Below are positions 1 through 19,313 of a stretch of DNA of 64,000 bases, in pieces; positions within the stretch are counted from its first letter, which is position 1; every line of letters starts with the position of its first letter. The stretch lies in contig JAWLHJ010000004.1 in assembly GCA_041690395.1 (NCBI GenBank), forward strand, positions 465,365-529,364, in the 5' to 3' direction. The notes beneath the pieces are model-generated. The model was not told the origin of the DNA, made no database searches, and saw only the letters and a program-made list of their open reading frames with translations. Origin of the DNA: Longimicrobiales bacterium. GTDB lineage: Bacteria; Gemmatimonadota; Gemmatimonadetes; Longimicrobiales; Gaopeijiaceae. Made by a program: the position numbers and the translations under genes.

Positions 1-1
1 C

Positions 2-1615
2 GGTCTGGCGGCAAGCATCGGAAGAGGCGCCATGTCGAACCCGCTGGCGGACATGGAGCGTCCCGATGTGATCTTCTGCATCGGGACCAATATGACCGAG
101 GCGCACCCCGTGGCAGCCACCCGTCTCAAGAAGGCGATCGCCCGCGGGGCGAAGATGATCGTTGCGGACCCGCGCCGGATCGACCTCGCCGAGCGCGCGC
201 ACCTGTACCTGCCCATCCGGGTGGGGTCCGACACCGCGCTCCTGCTCGCGATGGCGCACGTCATCGCCCGCGAAGGGCTGGTGGACGAGGCGTTCCTGCG
301 CGACCGCACGGTCGAGGGGGAGGCGTTCCTCGAACACGTGAAGGAGTTCACGCCCGAGTGGGCGTCGGAGATCTGTGAGGTGCCGGCCGAGGACATCGAG
401 CAGGCGGCGCTCTGGTACGCGCGGGCCGAGCGTGGCGCGATCTACTACACGCTCGGGATCACGGAGCACGTCTGCGGCGTCGAGAACGTCCAGAGCCTCT
501 GCAACCTGGCGTTGATGACCGGCCACATAGGACGCGAGGGAACCGGCATCAACCCGATGCGCGGGCAGAACAACATCCAGGGCGCCGGCGACATGGGCGC
601 CATCCCGAACAACTACCCCGGCTTCCAGCCCGTCTCGGACCCGGCGAACCAGGCGAAGTTCGAGAAGGCGTGGGGGACGAAGGTCGATCTCGAGGTCGGG
701 ATCACGAAGATCACGATGCTCGACCAGGCCGGCGACCAGATCCGCGCGGTCCTCATCGACGGCGAGAACACCGTGGTCTCGGACGCCGACCGCAGGCACG
801 CGGAGAAGGCGCTCCGGAAGCTCGACTTCCTCGTGGTGTGCGACCTCTTCCTCACGGACACCGCCGAACTCGCCGACGTCGTCTTCCCGGCGGCCGGCTG
901 GGCCGAGGTCGACGGAACCCAGACGAACACCGAGCGCCGCGTGCAGCGCCTGCGGGCGGCCGTTCCGCCCCAGGGCGAGGCGAAGCCCGACTGGTGGATC
1001 GTGAGCCGGCTCGCCCGGCGCATGGGCTTCCAGGGCTTCGACTACGAGAGCGCGAAGGAGGTCTTCAACGAGATGTGCGCGCTGTCGGCCACGTACCGGG
1101 GGCTCGACTGGGACCGTGTCGAGGAGGGGCGCTATCAGTGGCCCGTCCCCGAGGAGGGACATCCCGGCACGCCTCGTCTGCACGAAGGCGTGTTCGAGAA
1201 CGGCCGCGGCATCTTCAAGCTGACGAGCTACCGCGATCCCTCGGAGGTCATCGACGACGACTATCCGGTCTGGCTCACGACCGGCCGCCGGCTGCAGTCG
1301 TACCACACGCACACGCAGACGGGGCGGACCGCGGGCATCGAGTATCTGCTCCCGGGCGAGTCTCTCGAGATCCATCCGGACGACGTGGAGAAGCTCGGGC
1401 TGACCGACGGCGGGCTCGCTCGCGTCACGAGCAGACGGGGAAGCGTCGACGTTCCCGTCCAGGCGAACCCCCGGTCACCGAAGGGGACGGTCTTCCTCTC
1501 GTTCTCGTTCGCGGACATTCCGGTGAACGTGCTCACCGGCGGCGGCTACGATCCGATCACGCAGACGCCCGAGGTGAAGGTGTGCCCCGTGCGCGTGGAA
1601 GCGGTCAGAGGATGA
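2..1615 (+). CDS. Formate dehydrogenase alpha subunit (FdhF-like molybdopterin oxidoreductase), 5'-truncated by the window edge
   Basis: Frame is open from nt 2 (GLAASIGRGAMSN, the segment just after the Cys/Sec-His active site). Motifs EAHPV, PMRGQNNIQG, GTQTNTERRVQ and C-terminal TTGR..YHT. Confidence 0.9.
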   Translation, partial: GLAASIGRGAMSNPLADMERPDVIFCIGTNMTEAHPVAATRLKKAIARGAKMIVADPRRIDLAERAHLYLPIRVGSDTALLLAMAHVIAREGLVDEAFLRDRTVEGEAFLEHVKEFTPEWASEICEVPAEDIEQAALWYARAERGAIYYTLGITEHVCGVENVQSLCNLALMTGHIGREGTGINPMRGQNNIQGAGDMGAIPNNYPGFQPVSDPANQAKFEKAWGTKVDLEVGITKITMLDQAGDQIRAVLIDGENTVVSDADRRHAEKALRKLDFLVVCDLFLTDTAELADVVFPAAGWAEVDGTQTNTERRVQRLRAAVPPQGEAKPDWWIVSRLARRMGFQGFDYESAKEVFNEMCALSATYRGLDWDRVEEGRYQWPVPEEGHPGTPRLHEGVFENGRGIFKLTSYRDPSEVIDDDYPVWLTTGRRLQSYHTHTQTGRTAGIEYLLPGESLEIHPDDVEKLGLTDGGLARVTSRRGSVDVPVQANPRSPKGTVFLSFSFADIPVNVLTGGGYDPITQTPEVKVCPVRVEAVRG

Positions 1616-1835
1616 TCGCGAGCGGCAGCAGGACGACGTAGGCGAGCACCAGCAGCAGCGGCGCGGCCGTGATCGAGCCCTGGGCGAGCAGCCAATAGCC
1701 GAGGGTGAGCGTCAGGAGCCCGGCGGCTCCGAGCATCGCGTTCACGCGCGTGAAGCGGAGCGCGGCCGGTTGGCTTCGCGCTGCTTCGGCGGCTCTGCGC
1801 CGCGAGGGCTTTTTCGTTCGGTTCTCTTTGGGCAT
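1605..1835 (-). CDS. Small two-TM membrane protein (DUF3098-like)
   Basis: 76 aa with a basic N-terminus, then LGYWLLAQGSITAAPLLLVLAY hydrophobic hairpin. Lies directly after the NtrC gene. Confidence 0.6.
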   Translation of the reverse strand: MPKENRTKKPSRRRAAEAARSQPAALRFTRVNAMLGAAGLLTLTLGYWLLAQGSITAAPLLLVLAYVVLLPLAIIL

Positions 1836-1846
1836 GGCGGCTGATT

Positions 1847-3214
1847 CTAGACTCGGGCTTCCGCTGGGTCAATCGGATCGGCCAGATGGCTCCTCAGCTC
1901 GTCGACTTCGATGCCGAGCGCCTCGGCCGCCTTCTCTTCGTCTCCGTCGCAGCTCTCGAGCACGACCGTGACGTGCCTCCGGATGGCAGCCGCGAGCGAC
2001 TGGTCACCGCCGCCTTCGGCCGAGCCGTCCTCGTCGCCGAGAATGAGGTGGTCGGCTCCGATGACGGTTCCCCGCGCCATGATCGCGGCGCGCATGAGCG
2101 CGTTCTCGAGCTCCCGCACGTTCCCCGGCCAATCGTGCGCGCGGAGCTTGAGCACGGCACCGTCGGAGATCCGTCGGACGTTGCGGTGCGTCTCCTCCCG
2201 AATACGGCCGAGCATGGCGTTCGCGATCAGCTCGATGTCGTCGGGACGGGCGCGGAGCGGCGGCACTTCGATCTCGACGACCTTCAGGCGGAAGTAAAGG
2301 TCCTCGCGGAACGTCCCCTCCTCGATGAGCTTCTCCACCGGCTGGTGCGTGGCCGCGATGACGCGCGCCTCGGTGCGTCGCACCTCCTCTCCACCCACCG
2401 GATAGAAGCGCCGCTCCTGGAGCACCCGCAGGAGCTTGGTCTGGAACTCCGGGCTCGTGTCTCCGATCTCGTCGAGGAAGATCGTGCCCTTCTTCGCGAG
2501 CTCGAAGTATCCCTTGCGGGCCCCGGACGCCCCCGTGAACGCGCCCTTCACGTGCCCGAAGAGCTCCGACTCCAGGAGCGTGTCGGTCAGCGCGGTGCAG
2601 TTGACCGCGATGAACGGCTCGTCGGCGTACTCGGAGTGCTGATGAATCGCGCGCGCGATGACCTCTTTGCCGGTTCCCGTCTCGCCCCGGACCAGCACCG
2701 TGGCCCGGTTGCGCGAGAGCACGCCGATCGTCTTGTAGATCTCGATCATGCGCGGGTTGCGCCCGACGAGCTTGCCGCGTGGCAACGCGCCGTCGTCCTC
2801 GGCCGTGTCGTCGTCCGCGACGTCGACGTTCAGCGCCCGCTCACGGAAGCACCGCTCGGCCAGTCCCTGCACCGCCTTCGGGTCGACCGGCTTCACCAGA
2901 AAGTCGAACGCGCCGGCCTTCATGGCGGTGACGGCGGTCTCCATGTCGTCGTGCGCGGTCATGACCACGACCTCGACACGCTCCATGGACGAGCGGATCC
3001 GCTCGAGGAGCTCGAGGCCGGTCATCCCCGACATACGGACATCGGTCACCACCAGACCGGGGTCGAACGAGCTGACCCTGGCCAGGGCCTTTTCGGCGCT
3101 CTCGGCCGTCTCGACCTCGTAACCGGCATGGGCGAGGCGGGTCCGGAGCACTTCGAGGCCGTCGACGTCGTCGTCGACGACGAGAATTCGCTGGGATACG
3201 GAGGGTTCGGTCAT
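1847..3214 (-). CDS. Sigma-54-dependent response regulator (NtrC family)
   Basis: Receiver domain (VVDDD, TDVRM, FLVKP), Walker A GETGTGKE, ESELFGH, GAFTGA, FLDEIGD, WPGNVRELEN. Start moved to the ATG at 3214. Confidence 0.93.
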   Translation of the reverse strand: MTEPSVSQRILVVDDDVDGLEVLRTRLAHAGYEVETAESAEKALARVSSFDPGLVVTDVRMSGMTGLELLERIRSSMERVEVVVMTAHDDMETAVTAMKAGAFDFLVKPVDPKAVQGLAERCFRERALNVDVADDDTAEDDGALPRGKLVGRNPRMIEIYKTIGVLSRNRATVLVRGETGTGKEVIARAIHQHSEYADEPFIAVNCTALTDTLLESELFGHVKGAFTGASGARKGYFELAKKGTIFLDEIGDTSPEFQTKLLRVLQERRFYPVGGEEVRRTEARVIAATHQPVEKLIEEGTFREDLYFRLKVVEIEVPPLRARPDDIELIANAMLGRIREETHRNVRRISDGAVLKLRAHDWPGNVRELENALMRAAIMARGTVIGADHLILGDEDGSAEGGGDQSLAAAIRRHVTVVLESCDGDEEKAAEALGIEVDELRSHLADPIDPAEARV

Positions 3215-3224
3215 GGCGAGAATG

Positions 3225-4337
3225 TTAACCCCCCACGCCGGAGTCAGGGTCCACGTCGGCCGGACCGCGTGGGTCGCGTGGGCCACCAGGGTCGTCAGGG
3301 GTACCCGGTGGCCCCTGCTCACGCCGGACGTCGATGGGCTCGAGGTTCCAGTAGGCGGGGAGGTCCGGAACCTCCTCGGCCCTGAGGCGCGCCAGCTGCT
3401 CGTCGTTCCGCACCTTCCGCACCCGGACCATGTAGATCAGCACCACCCCGAGGAGGAGCCAGAACACCGACGAGCGTGCGACGACGAAGAGCCAACCGTA
3501 CCGGGATTTCACGTGCGCCCGCCAATCCTCCTCCAGCTGGCCGCTCGTGACGCCGTACGTCTGCCGCAGGGCCACCTCGAACGATCGTTCCTCGCGCCAC
3601 CGCTCCAGGAAGATCGCCAGGCCGCGCTCGCCGCTCCCTTCCAGTAGATAGGTCACGGCGCTCGCCGACAGGAGGTACGCGGTGCGCGCCTGGTCCCGGC
3701 GGCCGGGCCATCCGAGGGTGATCGAGTCGAGGGCCGGCGTGCCTCCGAACGCCAGCCCGACCCTGAGCTGCCACACCTCCATCGCGTCGAACCCACCGGC
3801 CGCCCACTCGGCGTACCCTTCGTTGAACCAGCGGGGGATGCGGAGCCCGCCCAGGAACTGGTGCAGCCCGAGGTGGGCCCACTCGTGACGAAGCGTACGG
3901 AGCCCTTCCCCGGAGAGTACCCCGGTGCCTTCACCCGACGGGATCACGAGCAGGTGGCGGGAAGGAACGGCCACCCCTGCACGCCACTCCGGAACGGCGC
4001 CGCCGATCGCCTGGTCCAACGCGGCCGGCGAGTGCGCCAGCACCGCGTGCACACCTGACGGGATCGAGTCGGGGAGGGCCGGGAGCGGTGCCTGGGCGTC
4101 GAGAAGGTCGCGCATGCGCTCGGCCAGCGCGGCCTGGGCGGGAACGTGGTAGACGGTCGCGCGACGGCCGGGAAGCGCGACGTAGGGCAAGCCGTCGAGC
4201 GTGTCCGGCACCGGAGCAGCCTCGACCTGGAACGCTGCCAGCTCGCCCACGCCGCCCGGAACGAAGGCCAGCAGGATGGCGAGCGCGAGCCCGAGGACCA
4301 CACGGGCACGAGCGCTCGAGACCCCGGACTCCTTCAC
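3225..4337 (-). CDS. Membrane-anchored zinc metallopeptidase (peptidase MA-like)
   Basis: N-terminal signal/TM segment, HEWAH plus PRWFNEGYAE zincin motifs, C-terminal TM. Start overlaps the upstream stop. Confidence 0.8.
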   Translation of the reverse strand: MKESGVSSARARVVLGLALAILLAFVPGGVGELAAFQVEAAPVPDTLDGLPYVALPGRRATVYHVPAQAALAERMRDLLDAQAPLPALPDSIPSGVHAVLAHSPAALDQAIGGAVPEWRAGVAVPSRHLLVIPSGEGTGVLSGEGLRTLRHEWAHLGLHQFLGGLRIPRWFNEGYAEWAAGGFDAMEVWQLRVGLAFGGTPALDSITLGWPGRRDQARTAYLLSASAVTYLLEGSGERGLAIFLERWREERSFEVALRQTYGVTSGQLEEDWRAHVKSRYGWLFVVARSSVFWLLLGVVLIYMVRVRKVRNDEQLARLRAEEVPDLPAYWNLEPIDVRREQGPPGTPDDPGGPRDPRGPADVDPDSGVGG

Positions 4338-5959
4338 CCGGCTTGCAGCATCTCCAGGTTGGAGCGTACCGCCTCGTTGTGGGGGTTCAGATCGAGCGCC
4401 CGCCGCCAGAGGAGGAGCGCGACGTCCCGGTCGTTGTCCTTGTAGGCCATGGTGCCGAGCCGGAGATAGACGTCGTCTCCGAGCCGGGGCGAGAGCTTCA
4501 CGGCCTTCTCGTACTGCACCCGGGCGCTCTCCATGTCACCATGCGCGTACGCCTGGTCGCCGAGGTTCTTGTGGGCCTGGGGTGGCGGCGGCTGGACGGC
4601 CACCGCTCGCTTGTAGAGAGCCGCCGCCGCCTCGACTTCCCCGCGTCGCTCGAGGACGGCGCCCGTGTTCACCAGGATCGCACCGGACTTCGGATAGTGG
4701 CTCATGCCCTCCTGGCCGACCCCCACCGCGAAGTCGAGGTCGCCGGCGACGGCCGCGGCCAACACCGTGTAGGCGTAGTACTGCTCGGCCGGGACCTTGA
4801 GGCCGGGATAGGTCCGGTACCGGCGGAGCGCCTCGAGCGCCTTGTCGACCCGCTGCGCCTTGAAGTGCACGATCCCGCGGGCGAGGTACACCTCATGGTC
4901 CTTGGGACGGGCGACCGCGGCCGCGTCGAGCGCCTGGAGCGCATCGTCGTACCGCCCGAGGGCCTCGAGGGCGAGAGCCGTGTTCCGATGGACGGCGTAG
5001 CTCTCGGCGTACCCGGGGGGCATCGACCCGAAGTGCTGGAGCGACTCCTCGAGCCGGCCGCGTCGGAACGCGATCAGACCCATCATGAAGTTCGCGCGCG
5101 CCTGCCGGGGATCGGCCTCCAGGGCCTCCTCGAACTCGCGCTGCGCATCCTCCAGCATCCCCGACCGGTAGAACGCGATCCCGACGTTGAGGTGCTGCTG
5201 AAGGGCCTCGTCGCCGCCCGTCTCCTCCTCGGTGGTCCGCTCGCCGGTGCGGGATACGAAGCCGGCCTGGATGAGGCCGTAGAGGGCCTTCCCGGTATCG
5301 AACTCGACGAGCCCCGCTTCGTTCATGATCTCGTGCACGGTCCGCACGCCGTCCACGAAGGGCAGGATCTTCTTCTGGTGCGGGGTGAGCTCCACCTCGG
5401 CTTCGCTGACGGACGTCGTGGGGTCATGGTCGACCTGGAAGACGATGTCGAACGACGGGATCTTCTTCTCGACCAGGCTCCACTCGTCCACGCGCCGGGC
5501 ACCCTCCATGAGGAGCGCCTCGGGCGGGATGTCGACGAGCAGGAGGCCGTCCTCGTCGGGCATCTGGTCCGTGTCGAAGTGGAACGACCCCTGGGACCAG
5601 GTGAAGAGGTGGTAGACCGCCTCCTCGACCTGCATCTGGATGTAGCGTCGCAGGTCGTCGTGGGTGAGCGCGCCCATCTCCACGAGGATCTCGCCGAGGC
5701 GCTTGCTCTTGTCGCGCGACTGCGTCTCCATCGCGCTCGACAGGTCTTTCCGCGTGATCACGTGGTTCCGGACCAAGAGCTCGCCGAGGCGGTCCCTGCG
5801 GTTCAGAACGGAGGCGTAGATCACCCGCCCCTTCTGGAAGTAGACGTATCCGAAGTTCGACCGGTCCGTGATGCTCAGGCAGCCGGTCTTGCGGCCCATC
5901 CCGAGCAGCTGGCAGATGTCGGCCAGGCTGACGTCCTGGAGTGCGCCCTCGATGGCCAT
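4334..5959 (-). CDS. DUF4388 domain protein with MshEN-like motif, winged-helix-like segment and TPR repeats
   Basis: Starts MAIEGALQDVSLADICQLLGMGRKTG (DUF4388 pattern). Several TPR-like repeats (AQREFEEALEADP, ALDLNPHN). ATG overlaps the upstream TAA. Confidence 0.85.
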   Translation of the reverse strand: MAIEGALQDVSLADICQLLGMGRKTGCLSITDRSNFGYVYFQKGRVIYASVLNRRDRLGELLVRNHVITRKDLSSAMETQSRDKSKRLGEILVEMGALTHDDLRRYIQMQVEEAVYHLFTWSQGSFHFDTDQMPDEDGLLLVDIPPEALLMEGARRVDEWSLVEKKIPSFDIVFQVDHDPTTSVSEAEVELTPHQKKILPFVDGVRTVHEIMNEAGLVEFDTGKALYGLIQAGFVSRTGERTTEEETGGDEALQQHLNVGIAFYRSGMLEDAQREFEEALEADPRQARANFMMGLIAFRRGRLEESLQHFGSMPPGYAESYAVHRNTALALEALGRYDDALQALDAAAVARPKDHEVYLARGIVHFKAQRVDKALEALRRYRTYPGLKVPAEQYYAYTVLAAAVAGDLDFAVGVGQEGMSHYPKSGAILVNTGAVLERRGEVEAAAALYKRAVAVQPPPPQAHKNLGDQAYAHGDMESARVQYEKAVKLSPRLGDDVYLRLGTMAYKDNDRDVALLLWRRALDLNPHNEAVRSNLEMLQAG

Positions 5960-7926
5960 TAGTCGAGCTCCTCGATGAGGAGGTCGACCATGCGGGGCCA
6001 GTAGATCACGGCGTTCTCTCGGCTCGGAAACCAGGCGCCGCCCTTCCTGGGCGTCGCCGGGGGTGCCGGTTCGGGAATGACGGTCTTGGCCTTGGGCTCC
6101 CTGCGGGGCTGCGCCGGAGCGGTCGGGGTCTGCTTCGGCTGGGCGGAGGTCGCCACCGGAGCGCCCGCCGGCGCGACGTCCGGCTCCGGGGCCTCGGGGC
6201 CTTCGGGGGCGATCTCGGCGGCCGGTGCGCTCGTTTCGCTCGCCGGCCCGCCGATCATCTCGTCGAGCTGCAGGTCCGGCACGAACGACGAGCTGTCGAT
6301 GGAGATCCGCTGATCCTCCAGGATCAGGTCGCTCCCGGGCGTGCCGCTGTTCAGCTCCAGCACCAGGCCGCCCTCGAAGCGCGACCGCAACCGGTCGTCG
6401 ATCCCCCCGATCTGCGCCGGCACCCGGTCGGACAGCAGGAGCACACGCGCGCCGCGCCGCTTGAGGGCCTCGAAGAGGTGGAAGAACTCGTCCTGGGCCC
6501 GCTCGGTCTCCGAGAGGGCCTCGACTCCGTGCACGAGGAGCAGGTCCACCGTCCACCACCGCTCCCGCCACGCCCCGGCGACGCCCTCTCCGAGCGCGCG
6601 GATGAAGTCGTCGGCGAAGTCGCTCAGCGACGTGACCGCCATGCGTGCTTCGGGATGGGTGACCTGATAGGTCCGCCCCGCCGCGCCGAGAAGCGTCTTC
6701 CCGAGGTCCTCGTCCGGCGCGGCGACGAAGAGCGGGTTGTACTCCGGACGATCCCTTCCGACGAGCTGGGCCGCCGCCTTGAGCACGATACCCGGGAAGT
6801 CTGCGAGATCCGTCAGCAGCTGTCCCCGCGCCAACCGCGGGAACGGGCGCTGCCGCTCGCGGACCGACGCCAACAACGACTCGGCCTCCCCGATCCGGTC
6901 GGGGTCCTTGAGGACGCCGGCGGCCGCCTCGGGCCACGGGTTGCCGAGCTCGTCGAGCTCGTCCTCGATCTCGCGGAGTCGGTCGACGTCCCGGCGGAAG
7001 CCCTGGACGACCTCCTCCCACCCTTCCGGCTCGGACCCTTTCATGTATGGGTCGAGGCGGAGGCTCGAGAAGCCTTCGCGCTCGGCCGTGTCCACGGCCT
7101 CGCGGAACGCACGCCGCCAGGGCTCTTCCTTCTCTTCGACGACCTCGGCCAGCGAGGTGACGAGATCGTCCAGAAACGAGTCGAACTCGGCATCGTGGGC
7201 GCCTTCGCCCGACGTGACCGAGCCCATGAGCAAGGGCACCTCGTCCACGCGCACCCGCCGCTCCTCGAGCTCCTGGGTCGCGAGGACCTTGTTCAGCCCG
7301 CCGCCCAGCTCACGAACGTTCCGGAACGGATGCCGTGCGAGCGCCTCGGCCACACCGGGCTCCAGGGTCTGGCCGCGCCCCTCCGCCTTCTTGCGGATGA
7401 TGGCCACCCGCGTCTCGTACTCCGGGACACCGATGTCCACGATGAGTCCGCCGGAAAAACGAGACAGCAGCCTGGCATCGAGCCCGTTGATGTCCGCCGG
7501 CGGCCGGTCGCTGGCCAGCACCACCTGGCTCCCCGAAGCGGACAGCTCGTCCAGGGTGCGCAGCAGCATCTCCTGGGCTTCCGGCTGGCCCGTCACGAAC
7601 TGCACGTCGTCCAACAGCAGGATGTCCAGCTCCTTGAAGATCGCCATGCTGTCCTGGGAGCCGTCCTCGATGGCCGACTCCAGACGCTCCAGGTACTTCT
7701 CCAGCGCCATATACTCGAGCTTGCGCCCGGGTGACGTCTTGAGCGCCTGGTGCGCGATCGCCGTCAGGATGTGGGTCTTTCCGAGCCCCGACGCCGAATA
7801 CACGAACAGCGGGTTGTAGCTCGTGCCGGGGGAATCCGCGGCACGCCTGGCCGCCGCGGAGGCCAGACGGTTCGCGGGACCCACCACGAACGACTCGAAA
7901 GTCAGCTTGGGATCGAAATCCGACAT
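5959..7926 (-). CDS. DnaA/Hda-family protein with two tandem AAA+ domains
   Basis: TFESFVVGPANRLA, YNPLFVYSASGLGKTH, LLLDDVQF, RLLSRF, NVREL. Second copy YNPLFV..LGKTLL..RLRSRFEGGL. No DnaA domain I or IV. Confidence 0.85.
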   Translation of the reverse strand: MSDFDPKLTFESFVVGPANRLASAAARRAADSPGTSYNPLFVYSASGLGKTHILTAIAHQALKTSPGRKLEYMALEKYLERLESAIEDGSQDSMAIFKELDILLLDDVQFVTGQPEAQEMLLRTLDELSASGSQVVLASDRPPADINGLDARLLSRFSGGLIVDIGVPEYETRVAIIRKKAEGRGQTLEPGVAEALARHPFRNVRELGGGLNKVLATQELEERRVRVDEVPLLMGSVTSGEGAHDAEFDSFLDDLVTSLAEVVEEKEEPWRRAFREAVDTAEREGFSSLRLDPYMKGSEPEGWEEVVQGFRRDVDRLREIEDELDELGNPWPEAAAGVLKDPDRIGEAESLLASVRERQRPFPRLARGQLLTDLADFPGIVLKAAAQLVGRDRPEYNPLFVAAPDEDLGKTLLGAAGRTYQVTHPEARMAVTSLSDFADDFIRALGEGVAGAWRERWWTVDLLLVHGVEALSETERAQDEFFHLFEALKRRGARVLLLSDRVPAQIGGIDDRLRSRFEGGLVLELNSGTPGSDLILEDQRISIDSSSFVPDLQLDEMIGGPASETSAPAAEIAPEGPEAPEPDVAPAGAPVATSAQPKQTPTAPAQPRREPKAKTVIPEPAPPATPRKGGAWFPSRENAVIYWPRMVDLLIEELD

Positions 7927-8017
7927 CAGGACCGGGATGTGTTTCCCTGTGAGGACACGAGACGACGGCGTTGGCGAGGAACACGCGGAACACTAAGTAT
8001 CGGCCCGCGCCTACGGG

Positions 8018-8048
8018 AAAAAAAGGGTGATCCGGCCCGGAGCGGACC
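8018..8048 (-). terminator. Possible intrinsic terminator after rluD
   Basis: Weak stem GGUCCG/CGGAUC followed after 4 nt by U7 on the minus strand. Confidence 0.35.
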
Positions 8049-8049
8049 G

Positions 8050-9033
8050 CTACGAGCCGGCATCCGACGATCCGGCGCCCGTCCCGCGAGCCCAACGCGC
8101 GGCCGCCGCTAGGTCCTCGGGGAGCTCCGCGCGGAAGCGCATCCGCTCTCCCGTGACCGGGTGGTCGAAGCCGAGCGCGGCGGCGTGCAGAAACTGACGG
8201 CGCACGCGGCGGGCGAGCTGGTCGGCCCACCGCCGGCTCCCTCCACCCATCCCGCGCTCCCACCCGAGACCGTAGACCGAGTCCCCGACCACCGGGTGGC
8301 CGATGTGGCTCAGGTGCACGCGGATCTGGTGGGTGCGCCCCGTCTTCAACGCCACGTCCAACAGGTCCGCACGCTCCCACCGTTCGGCCACCCGGACCCG
8401 GGTGAGCGCATGGCGGCCGCCCTCGACGACGGCCATCTTCTTGCGGTTCCCCGGGTCCCGGTCGATGGGGGCATCGATCGTGAGCACGTCCTCCGCGAGG
8501 TGTCCCCAGGCGAGCGCGGTGTAGATCCGCTTGATGCGCCGCTGCTTGAGCGCGTCGCTGAGCGCGTGATGGGCCTGGTCCGTCTTGGCCACCACGAGCA
8601 GTCCCGACGTGTCCCGGTCGAGGCGGTGGACGATGCCCGGGCGCAGCCGACCACCCACGCCGGAGAGGTCGCGCACGTGGTGGAGCAGCGCGTTCACCAT
8701 GGTCCCGGTCCGGTGCCCGGGGGCCGGGTGCACGACCATTCCCGCCGGCTTGTTCACGACGGCGAGATGGGGGTCCTGATAGACGATCTCGAGGGGAAGG
8801 TCCTCGGCTTCCATGGTCACGGCGACCGGAGCCGGCACCTCGATGCGCACGCGCTGGCCGGCCTCGACGACCTCGGACTTCCGCGCCGGGCGGTCGTCGA
8901 TGGTGATGTGTCCGTCCTCGAGGAGCTTCTGCACGCGGGTGCGAGAGAGATCCATACGGGCGGCTATGAAGCGATCGAGGCGGACCTCGTCGCCCTCCTC
9001 GACCGTCAGCTCATGGATATTCCGGTCGCTCAA
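8050..9033 (-). CDS. rluD: RluA-family pseudouridine synthase (RluD-like)
   Basis: N-terminal S4 domain, VNKPAGMVVHP, HRLDRDTSG, GRTHQIRVH. Confidence 0.92.
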   Translation of the reverse strand: MSDRNIHELTVEEGDEVRLDRFIAARMDLSRTRVQKLLEDGHITIDDRPARKSEVVEAGQRVRIEVPAPVAVTMEAEDLPLEIVYQDPHLAVVNKPAGMVVHPAPGHRTGTMVNALLHHVRDLSGVGGRLRPGIVHRLDRDTSGLLVVAKTDQAHHALSDALKQRRIKRIYTALAWGHLAEDVLTIDAPIDRDPGNRKKMAVVEGGRHALTRVRVAERWERADLLDVALKTGRTHQIRVHLSHIGHPVVGDSVYGLGWERGMGGGSRRWADQLARRVRRQFLHAAALGFDHPVTGERMRFRAELPEDLAAAARWARGTGAGSSDAGS

Positions 9034-9037
9034 CGGC

Positions 9038-12000
9038 TCACCCGGCCGCGGGCCGGAGCGCGATCCAGGCCGGCGTTCCGTCTAGGTCGACATCCGAGGC
9101 GTGCGGGAAGCCGTTCCTGGCCGGCGAGGCATCCTCCAGCACCGCCACGTCGAGGGCCAGCGTCTCGCCCCCGATGAAGTCCCGGTGCCCCTCAGCCGCG
9201 GCACGCACGGCGTCCGGACCGGCGATCCCCAGCTCGATCCGGTCGGTGATTTCGAGCCCGGCGTCCTTGCGGAGGCGCTGAATCCTGTTGACCAGCTCCC
9301 GCGCGAGGCCCTCGGCCCTGAGCTCGTCGTCGAGCTCCGGATCGAGCGCCACGGTGTAGGCGCCCTCCCCTTTCACCACGAGATCCCCGGTCGCCTCCTG
9401 CAGCACGTCGAGCTCGTCGGTCTGGAGGACATGCCGCTCCCCATCGATCTCGATCTCGACCGATTCGCCGCGCTGGAAGGCCCGGACCCGCTCCTGATCG
9501 AGCGCGCGGATCGCGTTGGCGGCATCGTTCGTCCGCTTGCCGAAGCGGTTCCCGAGCGCGCGGTAGTTCGGCTTGGCGCTCAGCGTCACGATGTCCTCGG
9601 CGCTCGACAGGAACCGGACCTCCTTCACGTTCAGCTCGTCCCGGACCACGTCCAGCACCTCACCCGACAGGGAGCGCCCACCGGGAACCACCGCCTCCAT
9701 GACACGGAGCGGCTGGCGAACCCGGATCCGGACCTCCTCACGTGCCGCCCTACCCAACGACACCAGGGTGCGGGCCGCGTCCATGTCGGCTTCGAGCCCC
9801 TCGGAGCGCGCGCCCGACACCTTCGGGAAGCGCTCGAGGTGGACGGTCTTCCCGGTGAGCCCGCGGTGCAGCCAATCGGCCGTGAACGGCACGACGGGCG
9901 CGGCGAGGAGCGTCACCGTCCGTAGCGCATCCCAGAGGGTCCGGAAGGCCGCGCGCATGTCGTCCGCGTCCTCGTTCCCCCAGAAGCGGGCCCGGTTGCG
10001 CCGCACGTACCAGTTGGAGAGGTCCTCGACCACGAAGTCCCCGAGCGCGCGGTAGGCGCGGGTGAGCTGGTACGCCTCGAGCTCCCGGGTCACGTCGTCC
10101 ACGACCGTGTCCAGGCGGGAAACGAGCCACCGGTCCAGGAGCGGCCGGTCCGCAGGTGCCGGATCCGCGTCGGACGGCTCCCACGCTTCGACCTCCGCGT
10201 ACATGGTGAAGAAGCGGTAGCTGTTGAACAGCGTGTCCAGGAACTTCCGAGCCGCCTCGCCCACGCCGGCCGGGTCGTACCGCTTCGGGACCCACGGATT
10301 CGACGACACGATGAAGTACCACCTGAGCGCGTCCGAGCCGTGCTCGTCGATCGCGTCCCAGGGGTTCACGACGTTCCCCTTGGACTTGGACATCTTCTGT
10401 CCCTCGGCGTCCAGGATCAGGTCGTTCACCACGACGTTCTTGTAGGCCGGTCCGCGCCCCAGGAGCGTGGAGATCGCCATGAGCGAGTAGAACCACCCGC
10501 GCGTCTGGTCGAGTCCCTCGCAGATGAAGTCCGCCGGGAAGTGCCGCTCGAACTCCTCCTCGTTCTCGAACGGGTAGTGCCACTGCGCGTAGGGCATGGC
10601 GCCCGAGTCGAACCAGACGTCGACCACCTCGGGCGTACGGCGCATGGTGCCTTCGCACTCCGCGCACGACCAGGTGATCTCGTCGATGAACGGCCGGTGG
10701 GGGTCGAAGTCGTCGGGCAGGTCACCGACCCGGGCCCGCAGATCCGCCAGCGAACCGATCCAATGCACGTGATCTTCGTCCTGGTCGCAGACCCAGACCG
10801 GAATCGGCGTGCCCCAGTAGCGATCACGGGACAGCGCCCAGTCGATGTTCCCGCGGAGCCATTCCCCGAAGCGGTTCTCCCCGACCTCGGGGGGGTGCCA
10901 GGACACCTGGTCGTTGTTCTCGAGCAGCTTGTCGCGCAGCGTCGACGTCGCCGCGAACCACGAGTGGCGCGCCACGTACAGGAGCGGCGAATCGCAGCGC
11001 CAGCAGTGCGGGTAGCTGTGCATCATGCGGCCGATGTCGAAGAGCAGGCCTCGGGCCTTCAGCTCGTCGACCAGCACGGCGTCTGCGTCCTTGACCCACT
11101 GACCCGCCACGAGGCCGACGTCTTCGGTGAAGCGGCCGGCCCCGTCGATGGGGTTGAGCATGGGGAGCCCGTGCCGCTGCCCCGCCGCGTAGTCGTCCGA
11201 CCCGAACGCGGGGGCCATGTGGACGATACCCGTGCCGTCGTCGGCGCTCACGAAGTCCTCGAGCACCACCGTCCAGCCGTTGCCCACGTCTTCGGGCTCC
11301 GGCACGAGATCGAGGGGCCTCCGGTACCGGATACCGGCGAGCTCGGCTCCAGGATACGTGCGCGCGACCTCGGCATCCTCGCCGAAGAGTGCCTCGACCC
11401 GGTCGAGGGCCAGGATGTAGCGACGGCCGTCGCGCTCCACTTCGGCGTACGTCAGCTCCGGATGCACCGCGAGCCCCGTGTTCGACGGGACCGTCCACGG
11501 CGTGGTCGTCCACGCGAGGAAGGCCCGGCCGTCGAGCTCGCCGTTCTCGTCGACGGCCTCGGCCACGAAGGTGAGCGAGGGGTCCTCGACGTCCTTGTAC
11601 CCGAGCGACACCTCGTGCGAGGACAGCGTCGTCCCGCAACGCGGGCAGTACGGCACGCTCTTGTGGCCGCGGTAGAGCAGCCCGTCGTCGGCGAACTTCT
11701 TGAGGATCCACCAGACCGACTCGATGTAGTCGGTGTGGAAGGTCACGTACGGGCGCCAGTACTCGAGCCAATACGCGATCCGCTCGCTCAGCCGCTCCCA
11801 CTCTTCCTTGTACGTGAAGACGGAGTCGCGGCACACCTCGTTGAAGCGCTCGATCCCGAGTGCCTCGATCTCCGGCTTCCCACTGATGCCGAGCTTCTTC
11901 TCGGCCTCGATCTCCACCGGTAGCCCGTGGGTGTCCCAACCCGCGATCCTCGTGACGCTCCGGCCCTCCATGGCCCGGTAGCGGCACACCAGGTCCTTGA

Positions 12001-12187
12001 TGGTCCGGCTGATGATGTGGTGGATGCCCGGACGCCCGTTCGCCGTCGGAGGCCCCTCGTAGAACACGAAGGGCTCGCCATCGGCGTTCGCCTCGAGGGT
12101 GCGGCGGAAGAGGTCCTCGTCACGCCACAGTCGGAGGGTTTCCTCCTCGATCTCGAGGAGGCTGTCGGGAAGCTCTGGGTAGCGCAT
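9038..12187 (-). CDS. ileS: Isoleucine--tRNA ligase, type 2
   Basis: EGPPTANG, GWDTHGLP, WTTTPWT, KMSKS. The HIGH position reads GIHH. IleRS2-type C-terminus (EGLARELVNRIQ). Confidence 0.97.
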   Translation of the reverse strand: MRYPELPDSLLEIEEETLRLWRDEDLFRRTLEANADGEPFVFYEGPPTANGRPGIHHIISRTIKDLVCRYRAMEGRSVTRIAGWDTHGLPVEIEAEKKLGISGKPEIEALGIERFNEVCRDSVFTYKEEWERLSERIAYWLEYWRPYVTFHTDYIESVWWILKKFADDGLLYRGHKSVPYCPRCGTTLSSHEVSLGYKDVEDPSLTFVAEAVDENGELDGRAFLAWTTTPWTVPSNTGLAVHPELTYAEVERDGRRYILALDRVEALFGEDAEVARTYPGAELAGIRYRRPLDLVPEPEDVGNGWTVVLEDFVSADDGTGIVHMAPAFGSDDYAAGQRHGLPMLNPIDGAGRFTEDVGLVAGQWVKDADAVLVDELKARGLLFDIGRMMHSYPHCWRCDSPLLYVARHSWFAATSTLRDKLLENNDQVSWHPPEVGENRFGEWLRGNIDWALSRDRYWGTPIPVWVCDQDEDHVHWIGSLADLRARVGDLPDDFDPHRPFIDEITWSCAECEGTMRRTPEVVDVWFDSGAMPYAQWHYPFENEEEFERHFPADFICEGLDQTRGWFYSLMAISTLLGRGPAYKNVVVNDLILDAEGQKMSKSKGNVVNPWDAIDEHGSDALRWYFIVSSNPWVPKRYDPAGVGEAARKFLDTLFNSYRFFTMYAEVEAWEPSDADPAPADRPLLDRWLVSRLDTVVDDVTRELEAYQLTRAYRALGDFVVEDLSNWYVRRNRARFWGNEDADDMRAAFRTLWDALRTVTLLAAPVVPFTADWLHRGLTGKTVHLERFPKVSGARSEGLEADMDAARTLVSLGRAAREEVRIRVRQPLRVMEAVVPGGRSLSGEVLDVVRDELNVKEVRFLSSAEDIVTLSAKPNYRALGNRFGKRTNDAANAIRALDQERVRAFQRGESVEIEIDGERHVLQTDELDVLQEATGDLVVKGEGAYTVALDPELDDELRAEGLARELVNRIQRLRKDAGLEITDRIELGIAGPDAVRAAAEGHRDFIGGETLALDVAVLEDASPARNGFPHASDVDLDGTPAWIALRPAAG

Positions 12188-12211
12188 GGATGCGGAGGCG
12201 GGTGGTATGGT

Positions 12212-13024
12212 TCAGTCGCGCTCGTCGGGAGCGTCTTCTTCGTCGAGATACAGCAACAGGTTCTCCGCACGGCGCGGTGCGTCGAGGGGCTCCGGGAGCG
12301 GATCGTCCTCGTCCGGTCCGTCCTGCAGTGGCGCGTCTTCCTCCGACCCGGCGATCGCGCCTTCGCCGGACGCTACGCCTTCCCCAGGCGCTGCACCCGC
12401 TCCGGACGCCGTGTCCTCGGCAGGGTCGACCGCGGCGGCACCCTCGCCGTCGACGGCGTCGTCCCCTCGCTCACGGCCCACCTTGGCGCGGATCGCGCCG
12501 AGGTCCAACTCGAAGGAGCGGTCCTCGAGGGGCGTGCGCGCCTCCTCGACCTCGACGACGTCCATCTCGCGCTCGAGCAGCTGACGGAACGATCGGAGGA
12601 AGCGGAGCCGTCCCCGCTCGAGCTCGCCCAGGGAGCGAACGATCTCGTCGGCCTTGCGCTCGGAGTTCCTCATCCGGATGCGCACCTCGGCCTCGGCCTC
12701 GGCGATCATCCGGCGCGACTCCGTGCGGGCGTCCTCCACGATCTTCTCGGCCTCGACGCGGGCCTGCTCCCGGATCTCGGTCCGGAGCTCCTGTGCCGTG
12801 ACCAGGGCGTCGCGCACGGCGGACTCCCGCTCGGTCTGCGAGCGGACCTGCGACTCGAGCGAGTGCGTGCGCTCCTTGAGCTGCAGATTCTCCCGCACCA
12901 GCGCCTCCAGCCGCTCGGACACCATCTCCAGGAACGAATCCACGTCCTGGACCTCATAGCCCCTCATGCTCTTGCGGAAGTCGCCGCGCTTGTTCCGTAC
13001 GTCCAGCGGTGTCAGGTCGATCAT
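12212..13024 (-). CDS. DivIVA domain protein
   Basis: LTPLDVRNK..F..SMRGYEVQDVDSFL motif, coiled coil and acidic tail. ATGA overlap with yggS. Confidence 0.88.
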   Translation of the reverse strand: MIDLTPLDVRNKRGDFRKSMRGYEVQDVDSFLEMVSERLEALVRENLQLKERTHSLESQVRSQTERESAVRDALVTAQELRTEIREQARVEAEKIVEDARTESRRMIAEAEAEVRIRMRNSERKADEIVRSLGELERGRLRFLRSFRQLLEREMDVVEVEEARTPLEDRSFELDLGAIRAKVGRERGDDAVDGEGAAAVDPAEDTASGAGAAPGEGVASGEGAIAGSEEDAPLQDGPDEDDPLPEPLDAPRRAENLLLYLDEEDAPDERD

Positions 13025-13743
13025 GCCCCTTCCCTCTCCCCGAAGAGTGCGGTCCCGATCCGGACCATGGTGCTCCCTTCCCGAATCGCGATCTCGAGAT
13101 CGTTCGTCATTCCCATCGACAGCTCCGGGCCGACGCGGTCCGTGGCCGCGCGAACCCGCTCCGATACGCTCCTCAGCCCGGCGAACGCTTCGGCCAGCAC
13201 CCGCTCGTCGTCGACGAACGGGGCCATCGTCATCAGTCCGAGCACCCGCAGGCCCGGAAGCTCGGCGAGCTCCTGGATGCTCTCCAGCACCGCCGGCCCC
13301 TCGAGGCCTCCCTTGGCCTCCTCGCCGGACGTGTTGACCTGCGCGAGGACCGAGACGGGCGAGCCCCGCTCCTCCGCCGCCCGCGACACCTTCCGTGCGA
13401 GCTTCAGCGAGTCGATCGAGTGGATCACGTCGGCGACCTCGACCGCGCGGGGCGCCTTCCTGCTCTGGATGTGCCCGATGAAGTGCCACGTCACGCCCGA
13501 CAGCCCGGACAGCGCCGCACGCTTCGCTTCGGCCTCTCCGACCCGGTTCTCGCCCAGGTCCCTCAGACCGGCCTCCACCGCCGCCTCGATCGCCGCGACG
13601 GGGTGGCCCTTCGTGACGGCCACCAGACGGACGTCCCCCGGATCCCGCGCCGCCGCGCGGGCGGCCTCCTCGATACGGTGGCGCACGGCCGGCACGGTCT
13701 CGGCCAGCCTCGTGGCGTACTCCTCAGCGGTCGCAGACGTCAT
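13021..13743 (-). CDS. yggS: YggS family PLP homeostasis protein
   Basis: LVAVTK, GENRV, WHFIGHIQ, LSMGMTND, VRIGTALFG. Confidence 0.95.
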   Translation of the reverse strand: MTSATAEEYATRLAETVPAVRHRIEEAARAAARDPGDVRLVAVTKGHPVAAIEAAVEAGLRDLGENRVGEAEAKRAALSGLSGVTWHFIGHIQSRKAPRAVEVADVIHSIDSLKLARKVSRAAEERGSPVSVLAQVNTSGEEAKGGLEGPAVLESIQELAELPGLRVLGLMTMAPFVDDERVLAEAFAGLRSVSERVRAATDRVGPELSMGMTNDLEIAIREGSTMVRIGTALFGEREGA

Positions 13744-13764
13744 CCATCCATCCCGTTAGTCACA

Positions 13765-13806
13765 TATAAACGCAAAGGGACCCCGCCGGAGCACCGGCGG
13801 GGTCCC
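13765..13806 (-). terminator. Intrinsic terminator after tonB
   Basis: Perfect 13-bp inverted repeat GGGACCCCGCCGG-N4-CCGGCGGGGTCCC at 13777-13806, followed by UUUGCGUUUAUA. Confidence 0.8.
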
Positions 13807-13829
13807 AAAGGGTCCTCTCAGGCTCCGTG

Positions 13830-14510
13830 TCAGCGAACCTGGAAGGTAATCGGGAAGGACACCCAGACGGGAACCCTCTGGTCGCGGTTCAGCGCCGGCG
13901 AGAACTGGTAGACCTCGGCCACGTTCAGAGCGGCCTGGTCGAGTGCCTGGTGCCCGGAGCTCTGGTCGATCCGAGTATCCTGAACGCGTCCGCCCTCGTC
14001 GATGAAGAAGTACACGCGCACCGTTCCGCCGATACCGGCGTCACGGAGTAGCGGCGGGTACTCCCGCTCCATCGCCCGGATCACCGCGGTCCGGTTCTGG
14101 ATCTCCGGCGCGACCGTGAACGGCGTGAACGTCGGCTGGGCGGACAGGTCCGTGCCCGCCTCCTCTGGAGGCGGCGGCAGGTCCTCCACCGGGTTATCCT
14201 CGAACGTCGTCGGCGCGATCGTGATGTCCTCCTCGATGTTCGCTTCGGCGATCACCGGGGTGGCCGGCCGCGAGATGGCCTGCGGCGGCGGCGGAATCTC
14301 GATCTCCGGCGGGAGCTCGATGGCCGTCAGCTCCTCGGACGTCACGGAGAAGTCCTCGGCGGTCAGTTCGGGCCAGAAGGCGAACGCGCCGAAGTGAATC
14401 AGCGTGGCCGCGATCATGGAACCCCAGAACCACGAGGCGAACGAACCCTTCAGGCGATCGTTGGCCGTCACCGCGGCCTCGATCGACGGTACCGCTTCGG
14501 CTGCGCTCAT
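13830..14510 (-). CDS. tonB: Energy transducer TonB
   Basis: N-terminal TM with His, Pro-rich linker, YPPLLRDAGIGGTV..SSGH..LDQAA TonB_C domain. Confidence 0.9.
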   Translation of the reverse strand: MSAAEAVPSIEAAVTANDRLKGSFASWFWGSMIAATLIHFGAFAFWPELTAEDFSVTSEELTAIELPPEIEIPPPPQAISRPATPVIAEANIEEDITIAPTTFEDNPVEDLPPPPEEAGTDLSAQPTFTPFTVAPEIQNRTAVIRAMEREYPPLLRDAGIGGTVRVYFFIDEGGRVQDTRIDQSSGHQALDQAALNVAEVYQFSPALNRDQRVPVWVSFPITFQVR

Positions 14511-14956
14511 CGTCTTGCCCTCTGCATGCTCTGCTCCAACTGCGCGGCGAACACCACCCTCACGACGCCCGCCTCGACCAACTCCTTCTGGACCAGGTCC
14601 ATGAAGCGGTAAGGCACGTCGCGGTCCCCTCGGATGGAGATGACGAGCGCCCGATCGGAAGCGGCGTACAGCGGCGCCACGATCGTGGACACGTCCTCCA
14701 TCGGCGTCAGCTGGTCGTTGATGTAGACCGAGCCGTCACGCTCCATCCAGATGTTCAGGATGTTCTTCTGCTTCTCGTCGATCTTCTCCGCGGCTTCGGC
14801 TTCCGGCCACTGGATCGGACGATCACGGTCGTTCTGGAAGACCGTCGTGACCATGAAGAAGATGAGGAGCAGGAAAGCGATGTCCGCGAGCGACGAAGTC
14901 GGCACCTCGGACGAAGCCTTCGACTTGCGGCTGAAGCCGCCACCCTTGATGGACAT
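14507..14956 (-). CDS. exbD: Biopolymer transporter ExbD
   Basis: DIAFLLLIFFMVTT TM motif; IRGDRDVPY. Confidence 0.9.
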   Translation of the reverse strand: MSIKGGGFSRKSKASSEVPTSSLADIAFLLLIFFMVTTVFQNDRDRPIQWPEAEAAEKIDEKQKNILNIWMERDGSVYINDQLTPMEDVSTIVAPLYAASDRALVISIRGDRDVPYRFMDLVQKELVEAGVVRVVFAAQLEQSMQRARR

Positions 14957-15382
14957 CTAGTTCTCCAGGATCTGGAGGGAGATTCTCTCGGCGTTCGCGG
15001 CGTGCAGCGCATCGAGCACGTTGACCATGTACTCGTACGCCGCATCCGGGTGCGTCTTCACGGCGGCGATCAGGTTCTCGTTGGCGGCCACTTCCTGTCG
15101 CCAGAGACCCTCGATCTCCTGCGGACGCATCTGCTGCACCTGCTGGCTCTCGCCGCGCCGAACGTCGACGACGCCGGTCGGCTGGATGATCAGGTGCAGG
15201 ATGTTGCGCTGGCTGACCTGAGCTTCCTCACCCGGCTCGGGCAGGACGATCGCGAGCCCCTTGTCCTTCGGGAAGGTCGTGGTAACCAGGAAGAAGATCA
15301 GGAGCAGGAACGCGATATCCGCCGTCGACGAGGTCGGGACCTCATCGCTGACCTTCTGCTTCTTGTTGCCCAGAATTGACAT
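14957..15382 (-). CDS. exbD: Biopolymer transporter ExbD (second paralog)
   Basis: DIAFLLLIFFLVTT TM motif. Confidence 0.88.
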   Translation of the reverse strand: MSILGNKKQKVSDEVPTSSTADIAFLLLIFFLVTTTFPKDKGLAIVLPEPGEEAQVSQRNILHLIIQPTGVVDVRRGESQQVQQMRPQEIEGLWRQEVAANENLIAAVKTHPDAAYEYMVNVLDALHAANAERISLQILEN

Positions 15383-15437
15383 GTGTTTCGCCCTCGTGTG
15401 TGATCAGAGGTACCGATGCGGACTGTGCGAGGTTCCG

Positions 15438-16253
15438 TTACTCGGTTCCCGGGTCTTCCTTCTTACTGGGCTGCGGCGGAGCCGCAGGGCGGTCGGTGGT
15501 GCCGCGGCGATCCGCTGCCACGCCCTCCGGCGCCGAGACGTCCGGGCGCGTCGCAGGAGCGGCCGCGCCGACACCGGCCGGGGCCTTCGACTCGTGCTTC
15601 ACGATCCGGATCTTTCCGTCCTTCTCGAGATCCCAGGCCAGATTCAGGATCCGCTGCGCTCCCTGCTCCATGTCGACGATCAGCATGTCGATACGCGACA
15701 CGAAGAAGTTGTACCCGATGTTCACCGGGATGGCGATCGTGAGGCCGGCGGCGGTCGTCAGGAGCGCCACCTTGATGCCGCCCGCGACCAGGGACGGATC
15801 CACGTCGCCGGCGGCCTCGATGGCGCCGAACGCCAGGATCATGCCGGCGACCGTGCCCAGGAAGCCCATGAGGGGCGCGACGTTGGCGATGGTCGCCAGA
15901 ATCACGAGGCCTCGCTCGAGGAACGCCAGCTCGATCGTTCCCGTCGTCGCGACGGCAGACTCGAGCTCCCCGCTCGCCAGCGTCTTCGACTGGATGCGGC
16001 GGAGACCCGCGAGCAGGATGGCGGACGCCGGTCCGGGCGTCTCGCTGGCGATCTGGATGGCGCCGTCGATGTCACCGGCGCGCGTGGCTTCCTCCACGTC
16101 GTGGAGCACGCGCTCGGTACCCTTGTGGGAGACCCACAACGTCCAAGCCTTGGCGATGATCACGCCGACCGCGATGAGCGAGCAGAGGACGAGCGGATAC
16201 ATCATCCACCCGCCGTCGGCAAATAGGGTCAGCAGCCGATACTGGGAGCCCAC
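15438..16253 (-). CDS. exbB: MotA/TolQ/ExbB proton channel protein
   Basis: GGWMMYPL, APLMGFLGTVAGMI, VAGGIKVALLTTAAGL. GTG start at 16253 follows an AGGAG RBS. Confidence 0.9.
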   Translation of the reverse strand: MGSQYRLLTLFADGGWMMYPLVLCSLIAVGVIIAKAWTLWVSHKGTERVLHDVEEATRAGDIDGAIQIASETPGPASAILLAGLRRIQSKTLASGELESAVATTGTIELAFLERGLVILATIANVAPLMGFLGTVAGMILAFGAIEAAGDVDPSLVAGGIKVALLTTAAGLTIAIPVNIGYNFFVSRIDMLIVDMEQGAQRILNLAWDLEKDGKIRIVKHESKAPAGVGAAAPATRPDVSAPEGVAADRRGTTDRPAAPPQPSKKEDPGTE

Positions 16254-16325
16254 GAATACTTCGCTCCTGATGTAAGTTGGTCGCACCCGCGGACGCCAAC
16301 GGGCACTGGGACTTGGAACGTCGGC

Positions 16326-16355
16326 AATCTACGGGTGCCGTCGCCGGGGTGTCAA
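16326..16355 (-). promoter_or_regulatory. Sigma70-type promoter for exbBD-tonB
   Basis: TTGACA-N18-TAGATT on the minus strand in the cdaA-exbB gap. Confidence 0.65.
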
Positions 16356-16374
16356 CGCAACGGGTCGCGGGGCC

Positions 16375-17193: not shown

Positions 17194-17235
17194 TGGAGTT
17201 CGGCCCCCATAGCCGCGGCCCCACTCGATGCATGC

Positions 17236-19272: not shown

Positions 19273-19313
19273 ACTTCACTCGAAAGAGCCCGGCGGAGCG
19301 CTCGGACAGGCCC

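Follow-up and report, generated by a model that had tools for sequence, protein, structure and literature searches.

A 64,000-nucleotide stretch of the genome of a Longimicrobiales bacterium (assembly GCA_041690395.1, contig JAWLHJ010000004.1, positions 465,365 to 529,364; hereafter the window, to whose numbering feature coordinates refer) contains a gene for a protein in which two copies of the AAA+ core of the replication initiator DnaA (its domain III) are fused in one chain. The first core (D1) has a complete ATP site, the second (D2) is a pseudo-ATPase, and the next gene encodes a protein that combines PATAN (DUF4388) and TPR segments. We favor a reading, to which we assign a probability of about one half, in which the tandem protein is a DnaA-derived ATPase without a DNA-binding domain, D2 completes the single ATP site of D1, and the resulting switch docks on the PATAN-TPR partner. 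That the protein works with this partner rather than in replication we regard as probable; that there is one composite ATP site with D2 as the finger donor is, judging from residue conservation, somewhat favored.

Pfam identifies two Bac_DnaA stretches in the 655-residue protein, each separately over the cut-off (E values 1e-48 and 3e-26), and no match to DnaA_N or DnaA_C. Domain III begins at residue 4, domain I (PF11638) was not found, and the C-terminal helix-turn-helix domain IV (PF08299) has no match in the protein, whose C terminus consists of a disordered spacer and a tail. The original prediction, made from the sequence alone, had described an intact and a degenerate AAA+ domain with domains I and IV missing, and had anticipated this outcome of a profile search. 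All of the motifs that it quoted are present, in D1 (SASGLGKT at residue 44, LLLDD at 103, SDR at 139, RLLSRF at 152, and NVRE at 203) and in D2 (YNPLFV at 396, APDEDLGKT at 403, LLVHG at 463, LSDR at 497, and RLRSRFEGGL at 512). The two cores are 33% identical (E 7e-18). The motif residues of D1 are Walker A K50, Walker B D106 and D107, sensor I D140, arginine finger R156, and sensor II R205, and its top Foldseek match is domain III of Bacillus subtilis DnaA (8bv3; TM-score relative to the target 0.93, root-mean-square deviation 1.7). Its Walker A motif starts with Ser, at a position that is Gly in 83 of 85 canonical DnaA sequences.

In the AlphaFold model of the full protein (56-row alignment; mean predicted local distance difference test [pLDDT] score 84, predicted TM-score [pTM] 0.49), D2 folds into a five-strand core that matches that of D1 (pLDDT >93) and has no lid. 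Its Walker A motif was correctly called degenerate, but the GKT within it is shifted by one residue from the true register. The helix begins three residues earlier than it should, G409 occupies the position of the Walker A lysine, and so D2 is without this residue (Lys in 0/21 proteins of f1, the host's own family). The segment between the cores had been described as an acidic helical linker; it is both helical and acidic, but is modeled as a folded helical domain. This domain has no Foldseek match at E ≤ 0.001 (the best VIA Z-score, 5.9, is to generic helical bundles) and no match in an Atlas search, which does not prove that the fold is new. Residues 541-630 are disordered, and the conserved tail beyond them (residues 629-655), which the original prediction did not mention, is modeled with moderate confidence. 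The net charge is acidic in every segment of the protein.

The residues of the DnaA filament interface are unequally kept in the two cores. We mapped B. subtilis DnaA residues via 8btg, with assignments taken from Richardson (2019), Pelliciari (2021, 2023), and Katayama (2017); 11 split or partial open reading frames (ORFs) were left out of the residue counts and eight mis-sorted rows were moved to the canonical set (L071 is a canonical dnaA). In f1 (21 proteins), D2 keeps R202, H231, R264, and L269, each in 21/21, and loses E183 (4/21), F218, R321, and K157 (each 0/21). D1 keeps E183, F218, G317, R321, K157, both Walker B Asp residues, sensor I, and sensor II, each in 21/21, and loses H231 (0/21) and E228. 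By count, four of the five finger-face residues survive in D2; in D1, four of the five residues of the ATP face do, along with the complete ATP site. The arginine fingers R156 (D1) and R516 (D2) are each conserved in 21/21, and a finger therefore appears to be available to act in trans. Two proposals of the original prediction, a fused active/pseudo-ATPase pair that retains its arginine finger and a repurposed switch, gain support from these patterns.

The fate of D1 also varies with the presence of D2. All 80 of the D2-bearing proteins that were examined have the same catalytic residues in D1. In f2 and f3, two other families of the order, sensors I and II of D1 are each present in 16/16 proteins with any form of D2, versus 2/8 and 1/8, respectively, in those without D2. 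H231 is present in D1 in 10 of 11 D2-less proteins of family f6, versus 0 of 80 D1s that have a D2. The dead D2 is itself under purifying selection, with a ratio of nonsynonymous to synonymous substitution rates of 0.12-0.20 in four pairwise comparisons. The most conserved segment of the protein is D2 residues 430-492, with 88% mean identity versus 79% for the D1 core among 24 f1-type proteins (mostly top-scoring hits), and the positions that match B. subtilis I190, R202, E228, and H231 lie within it. At the single-stranded DNA (ssDNA) positions I190 and K222, D1 has E83 and Q114; D2 retains the Ile but not the Lys.

The tandem protein is not the replication initiator itself. There are three Bac_DnaA matches in the 98%-complete genome, two in the tandem protein and a third in a complete dnaA on contig C1, where the sole Bac_DnaA_C match is also located. 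This dnaA is followed by dnaN (about 247800-249200 of C1; L005:6352-9177), and there are three DnaA-box-like sites near it and none near the tandem gene. The original prediction had looked to a canonical dnaA-dnaN pair elsewhere in the genome, and it also stands in that no DNA-binding domain was found in the tandem protein and D2 models as AAA+.

The gene and its partner are closely associated. The partner ATG overlaps the stop codon of the tandem gene by 1 nt (TAATG), an arrangement present in 35 of 61 pairs, and the partner lies directly downstream of the gene in 23/23 f1 loci. The inserted MshE-type motif of the partner scores 53.5 bits against a cut-off of 38 (NF053729), and the Arg of its first RLG is kept in 61/61. 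DUF4388 is found in 25/25 f1 genomes with the gene versus 0/22 without it, although these genomes are related and do not constitute an independent test. The dependence between gene and partner runs one way. Contigs of relatives from one soil metatranscriptome include the gene and span its junction with the partner, which does not show transcription. The usual order in other families is cheY-cheA-cheC-TPR-DUF4388-TPR/roadblock-roadblock-mglB-mglA-[gene]-DUF4388/TPR-cheR-cheD-cheB-cheW (gene calls at loci came from a home-made ORF scorer, which misses some genes), and mglA is directly upstream of the gene in 37/39 loci of a first set (both exceptions being f1), in 16/19 f2 and f3 loci of a second set, and in 11/11 further loci. 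The cluster is much smaller in f1, where 23 loci read ileS/rluA-[gene]-DUF4388/TPR, with mglA upstream in 0/23. Three of the 23 genes are split or truncated, and one locus (L174) has an MglB-like label that marks a candidate only. Each of the 25 f1 genomes with the gene has only one MglA match, which in the host genome is a separate mglA beside recR; similar scores suggest the same for the other f1 genomes.

The family is real and conserved. Its named homologs are from Gemmatimonadota (the nearest from Longimicrobiales), its Atlas matches are Gemmatimonadota clusters labeled "DnaA/Hda family," and the tandem matches of a genome-wide pattern scan were all labeled Gemmatimonadota among the matches listed. 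With the linker as query, the gene was found in 135 of 201 genomes of the order (f1, 24/76; f2, 56/64; f3, 54/60) and in 104 of 251 genomes of a class set (f4, 47/49; f5, 19/27; f6, 11/12), and it was not found in f7 (0/64) or f9 (0/18). Across Gemmatimonadota, D2 exists in four states: intact (mostly with a lid), lidless, P-loop-dead, and deleted. It is intact across most of the class, which was not visible to the original prediction; the Walker A Lys of D2 is present in 43/43 Gemmatimonadales-type proteins and in 6/16 proteins of f2 and f3, and by these counts the loss of D2 ATP motifs is lineage-specific. Proteins with D2 deleted (about 390-400 residues) occur in f3 and f6; on the partner tree the deletion occurred in at least three lineages, and the D2-less proteins of f2 and f3 form at least two separate groups. 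In quick domain trees built without bootstrap or outgroup, D1, D2, and canonical DnaA form three groups that each track host taxonomy, single-core forms group with D1, and the D2 of f1 is set off by a long stem, of 1.06-1.15 changes per site, beyond which it is strongly conserved.

In a sister class (f11 and f12), the protein has a single, more diverged core, no helical linker, an acidic spacer, and a similar tail, and its gene is followed by one that encodes only the TPR half of the partner (hhalign probability 99.9%). This is likely an ancestral or reduced form. Because the tail goes with the TPR half and the linker goes with the PATAN half in this comparison, the protein may touch its partner at two places. 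The sister-class loci (L240:7409-9354, L241:5915-7875, and L243:5945-7991) lie downstream of dapF-like and glycosyltransferase-like genes (labels assigned by eye). Among other irregular forms, the D2-less proteins of f6 (L230-L239 and L057) have a shortened initiator motif in D1, intact sensors, and a DnaA-like FHLLDH helix; one genome has a second linker-containing ORF (L245, G048:C50, about 17860-18200); and split or frameshifted copies at L062, L067, L165, L167, L175, and L239 reflect assembly error or pseudogenes.

Comparison with known systems sets the protein apart from both DnaA and Hda. D1 is 39% identical to and superimposable on domain III of DnaA (TIGR00362, PF00308; PDB 8bv3/8btg, 2z4r, 2hcb, and 3r8f), with which it shares Walker A and B, sensors I and II, the box VII arginine finger, and the initiator motif, and D2 derives from the same core. 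Unlike DnaA, the protein has no domain I, II, or IV, its two cores are joined by a family-specific helical domain, the ssDNA residues are lost in D1, the cores form separate tree groups, and the gene is not at oriC. It resembles Hda (TIGR03420; PDB 5x06 and 3bos) in being a DnaA domain III paralog without a DNA-binding domain and, in the mechanism proposed below, in giving an arginine finger to an ATP-bound DnaA-type core. It differs from Hda in score (TIGR03420, 108.9 against a cut-off of 194.8), in being a tandem, in having no N-terminal clamp motif, in gene context, and in its proposed target, its own D1. On the tested features it is a member of neither group. The TIGR00362 cut-off is passed (346.7 versus 343.9) only because the two domains are summed, which would explain why such proteins, which can pass this equivalog cut-off, are often annotated as initiators; this could distort dnaA counts in Gemmatimonadota.

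AAA+ proteins with active and inactive rings or subunits include the p97/NSF-type D1-D2 proteins and the finger-donating subunits of ORC. These too pair a catalytic with a non-catalytic module (among the Foldseek rows, p97 and Rix7 are weak tandem-AAA matches), but they belong to another AAA+ clade (12-16% identity), whereas the tandem protein has a bacterial initiator-clade origin and gives no evidence of a hexamer. The position of the gene in relatives, between mglA and the PATAN-TPR gene, recalls MglA/MglB polarity modules with TPR effectors (SgmX) and PATAN proteins, except that f1 has lost the cluster's mglA and retains only the PATAN-TPR side. The PATAN preprint describes how, in Synechocystis, proteins of this type act on pilus motors. 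A row in the supplement of Wuichet and Sogaard-Andersen (2015) gives the G. aurantiaca neighborhood as "PATAN>MglA>-PATAN>," and the unnamed gene between MglA and PATAN would be the DnaA paralog; the main text has no occurrence of a DnaA-type ATPase, and dnaA does not occur in the available part of a Gemmatimonadota survey. A full-text literature search, with most subscription papers outside its reach, found no description of the family, which is apparently an undescribed variant of the initiator-clade AAA+ proteins.

In the mechanism that we propose, D1 would bind and hydrolyze ATP, and D2 would pack head to tail on D1, reproducing a single step of a DnaA filament either in cis or within a closed dimer. 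The dead D2 would supply the arginine finger and an oligomer face to the ATP site of D1, and this packing would give one site per chain and stop polymer growth. Its action may resemble that of an Hda whose target is its own chain. On the partner, the TPR half would be the docking site for the C-terminal tail and the PATAN half a possible contact for the helical linker, with an output in chemosensory or polarity-type signaling that is possibly gated by c-di-GMP through the MshE-type motif. Since the che genes and the second mglA are gone in f1, the two-gene unit would run without them there. A more detailed version, which we advance tentatively, is a one-chain "DnaA plus built-in Hda," in which a dead core fires the single ATP site of a live core and is wired via a c-di-GMP-binding PATAN-TPR scaffold to the MglA/chemosensory pathway across most of a bacterial class, the host lineage keeping an end point at which D2 is reduced to its finger face and the cluster to two genes. 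Two other ideas about the tail were discarded: an Hsp90-like terminal EEVD clamp is unsupported (many tails end in Arg or run on further), and folding of the tail back on the linker has no support from a model of the linker and tail of a D2-less relative (pLDDT 53-56).

To our knowledge, the DnaA-type AAA+ proteins (DnaA, Hda, DnaC/DnaI, and IstB) all act on DNA; if the favored reading is true, the DnaA engine has been put to use in signaling. A two-protomer, one-site, non-polymerizing DnaA unit would then also provide a clean model for the biochemistry of the arginine-finger step, and the natural deletion series of D2 (intact, lidless, dead, and absent) places each face of the DnaA filament interface on a domain of its own.

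Several observations weigh against this reading. The D1 of f1 still has R264 and L269 in every protein (21/21 each) and R202 in 16/21, which leaves D1-D1 oligomers possible, and R206 of D2 is replaced by Trp in 21/21. The assignment of residues to the two faces relies on the order of a figure legend and on general AAA+ structure, and the pTM of 0.49 means that the D1-D2 arrangement is not fixed by the model. D2-less f6 proteins keep a fully intact D1 (11/11), and D2 is therefore not always needed; the D2-less f3 proteins represent only about two independent events. On the side of the partner, it is retained without the gene in some genomes (the G034 and G112 loci), and the resemblance between its tail and the sister-class tail is weak in statistical terms (hhalign probability 2%, E 0.023). 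The host genome is without the cluster's mglA and che genes, which makes the signaling link here one of inherited context. pilM does not track the gene: of 80 genomes, 71 have it over the cut-off whether or not they carry the tandem gene, and a specific type IV pilus link was rejected.

Capping or inactivation of DnaA filaments, the other role offered by the original prediction, is not favored. In this alternative, the protein would be a replication regulator whose D2 inserts its finger into ATP-DnaA and, having neither ATP site nor lid, ends or inactivates the filament, as an Hda substitute under PATAN-TPR control instead of the clamp. The finger-face and initiator-motif residues of DnaA are indeed better kept in D2 than in D1, no separate Hda was found (the genome has no further Bac_DnaA match), and parts of the literature describe Hda as acting on ATP-DnaA in trans. 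We nevertheless consider it unlikely. Two strict clamp-binding patterns match 0 of 301 sequences and a loose pattern matches one, not at the N terminus; the gene lies beside che/mgl/PATAN-TPR genes rather than replication genes in the mapped loci; the contrast in DnaA boxes noted above also counts against this role; the gene was not found in 52 of 76 f1 genomes, nor in f7 or f9; D2 is deleted in at least three lineages; and the decay of D1 after the loss of D2 points to a relation between the two cores.

Alternatively, ATPase chemistry might be secondary, with the linker and tail organizing the PATAN-TPR complex and D2 serving as a dispensable surface that has acquired a new partner in f1. The only constant parts are D1, the tail, and the partner, D2-less versions with decayed D1 sensors persist in f3 and the sister class, and the long stem of the f1 D2 followed by strong conservation would fit such a change; however, the invariance of the D1 catalytic residues in D2-bearing proteins, and the fact that the conserved D2 residues are those of the AAA+ interface, make a scaffold rather improbable. 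A role for the D2 initiator motif in binding ssDNA or a guanine nucleotide (such as c-di-GMP) to gate D1 is a long shot. D2 keeps I190 (Ile or Val in 21/21), R202, and E228, which are guanine contacts in DnaA according to parts of the sources, as well as the position of Escherichia coli R245 (21/21), D1 has lost I190, and the partner has a c-di-GMP-type motif. Against this, D2 has lost K222 (0/21) together with E183/N187, which form the second half of the base pocket, R202 doubles as an interface residue, and all segments are net acidic.

Table 1. Features of the tandem gene and its surroundings in the window
Feature	Position	Strand	Basis or remark
Tandem DnaA-domain-III gene, 655 aa, stop TAA	5959..7926	minus	ORF; Pfam
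D1, DnaA-type AAA+ core and lid, residues 4-233	7228..7917	minus	Alignment, Foldseek
D1 Walker A SASGLGKT, residues 44-51	7774..7797	minus	Motif
Acidic all-helical linker domain, residues 246-362	6841..7191	minus	AlphaFold; family-specific
D2, lidless pseudo-ATPase AAA+ core, residues 363-525	6352..6840	minus	Pfam, AlphaFold, alignment
D2 dead P-loop, residues 403-411, G409 at Walker A Lys position	6694..6720	minus	AlphaFold, alignment
D2 initiator-specific motif, dead Walker B (H466/G467), and next helix, residues 430-492	6451..6639	minus	
D2 box VII, R512 to R516	6379..6393	minus	Alignment
Pro/Ala-rich disordered spacer replacing D2 lid, residues 541-628	6043..6306	minus	AlphaFold
Conserved C-terminal tail, residues 629-655, WFPSRENAVIYWP...IEELD	5962..6042	minus	Candidate docking peptide
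Partner gene, DUF4388/PATAN with inserted MshE-type c-di-GMP motif and TPR repeats, 541 aa	4334..5959	minus	
Peptidase_MA_2 gene	3225..4301	minus	Pfam; conserved neighbor
Terminator-like hairpin between rluA and tandem gene	8029..8048	minus	Consensus match only; equal number expected by chance

A plasmid search gave no match, and Rfam gave none within window positions 1-20000. The Peptidase_MA_2 gene was rejected as a member of the module, being present in 18 of 22 f1 genomes without the tandem gene. Strict coupling between the death of D2 and the loss of mglA was likewise found not to be general: at L039 and L184, both in f2, the P-loop is damaged although mglA is adjacent. At L247 and L248 (genomes G034 and G112) the tandem gene has been cleanly lost, mglA adjoins the DUF4388 gene, and the peptidase neighbor was likewise not found in either. 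The host genome has a separate chemotaxis cluster (G000:C5, about 100000-110400; L077) with cheW, a receptor-like gene, cheR, cheD, cheY, cheB, and cheA; it adjoins flagellar-type genes (labels partly by eye) and is only 33-42% identical to the genes of the lost cluster. An NtrC-type sigma-54 response regulator (window positions 1847-3214, minus strand) follows the peptidase gene in many f1 loci and stands where the che genes were lost. A small membrane protein with no Pfam match (1608-1835, minus strand) is conserved downstream of the cluster in several families.

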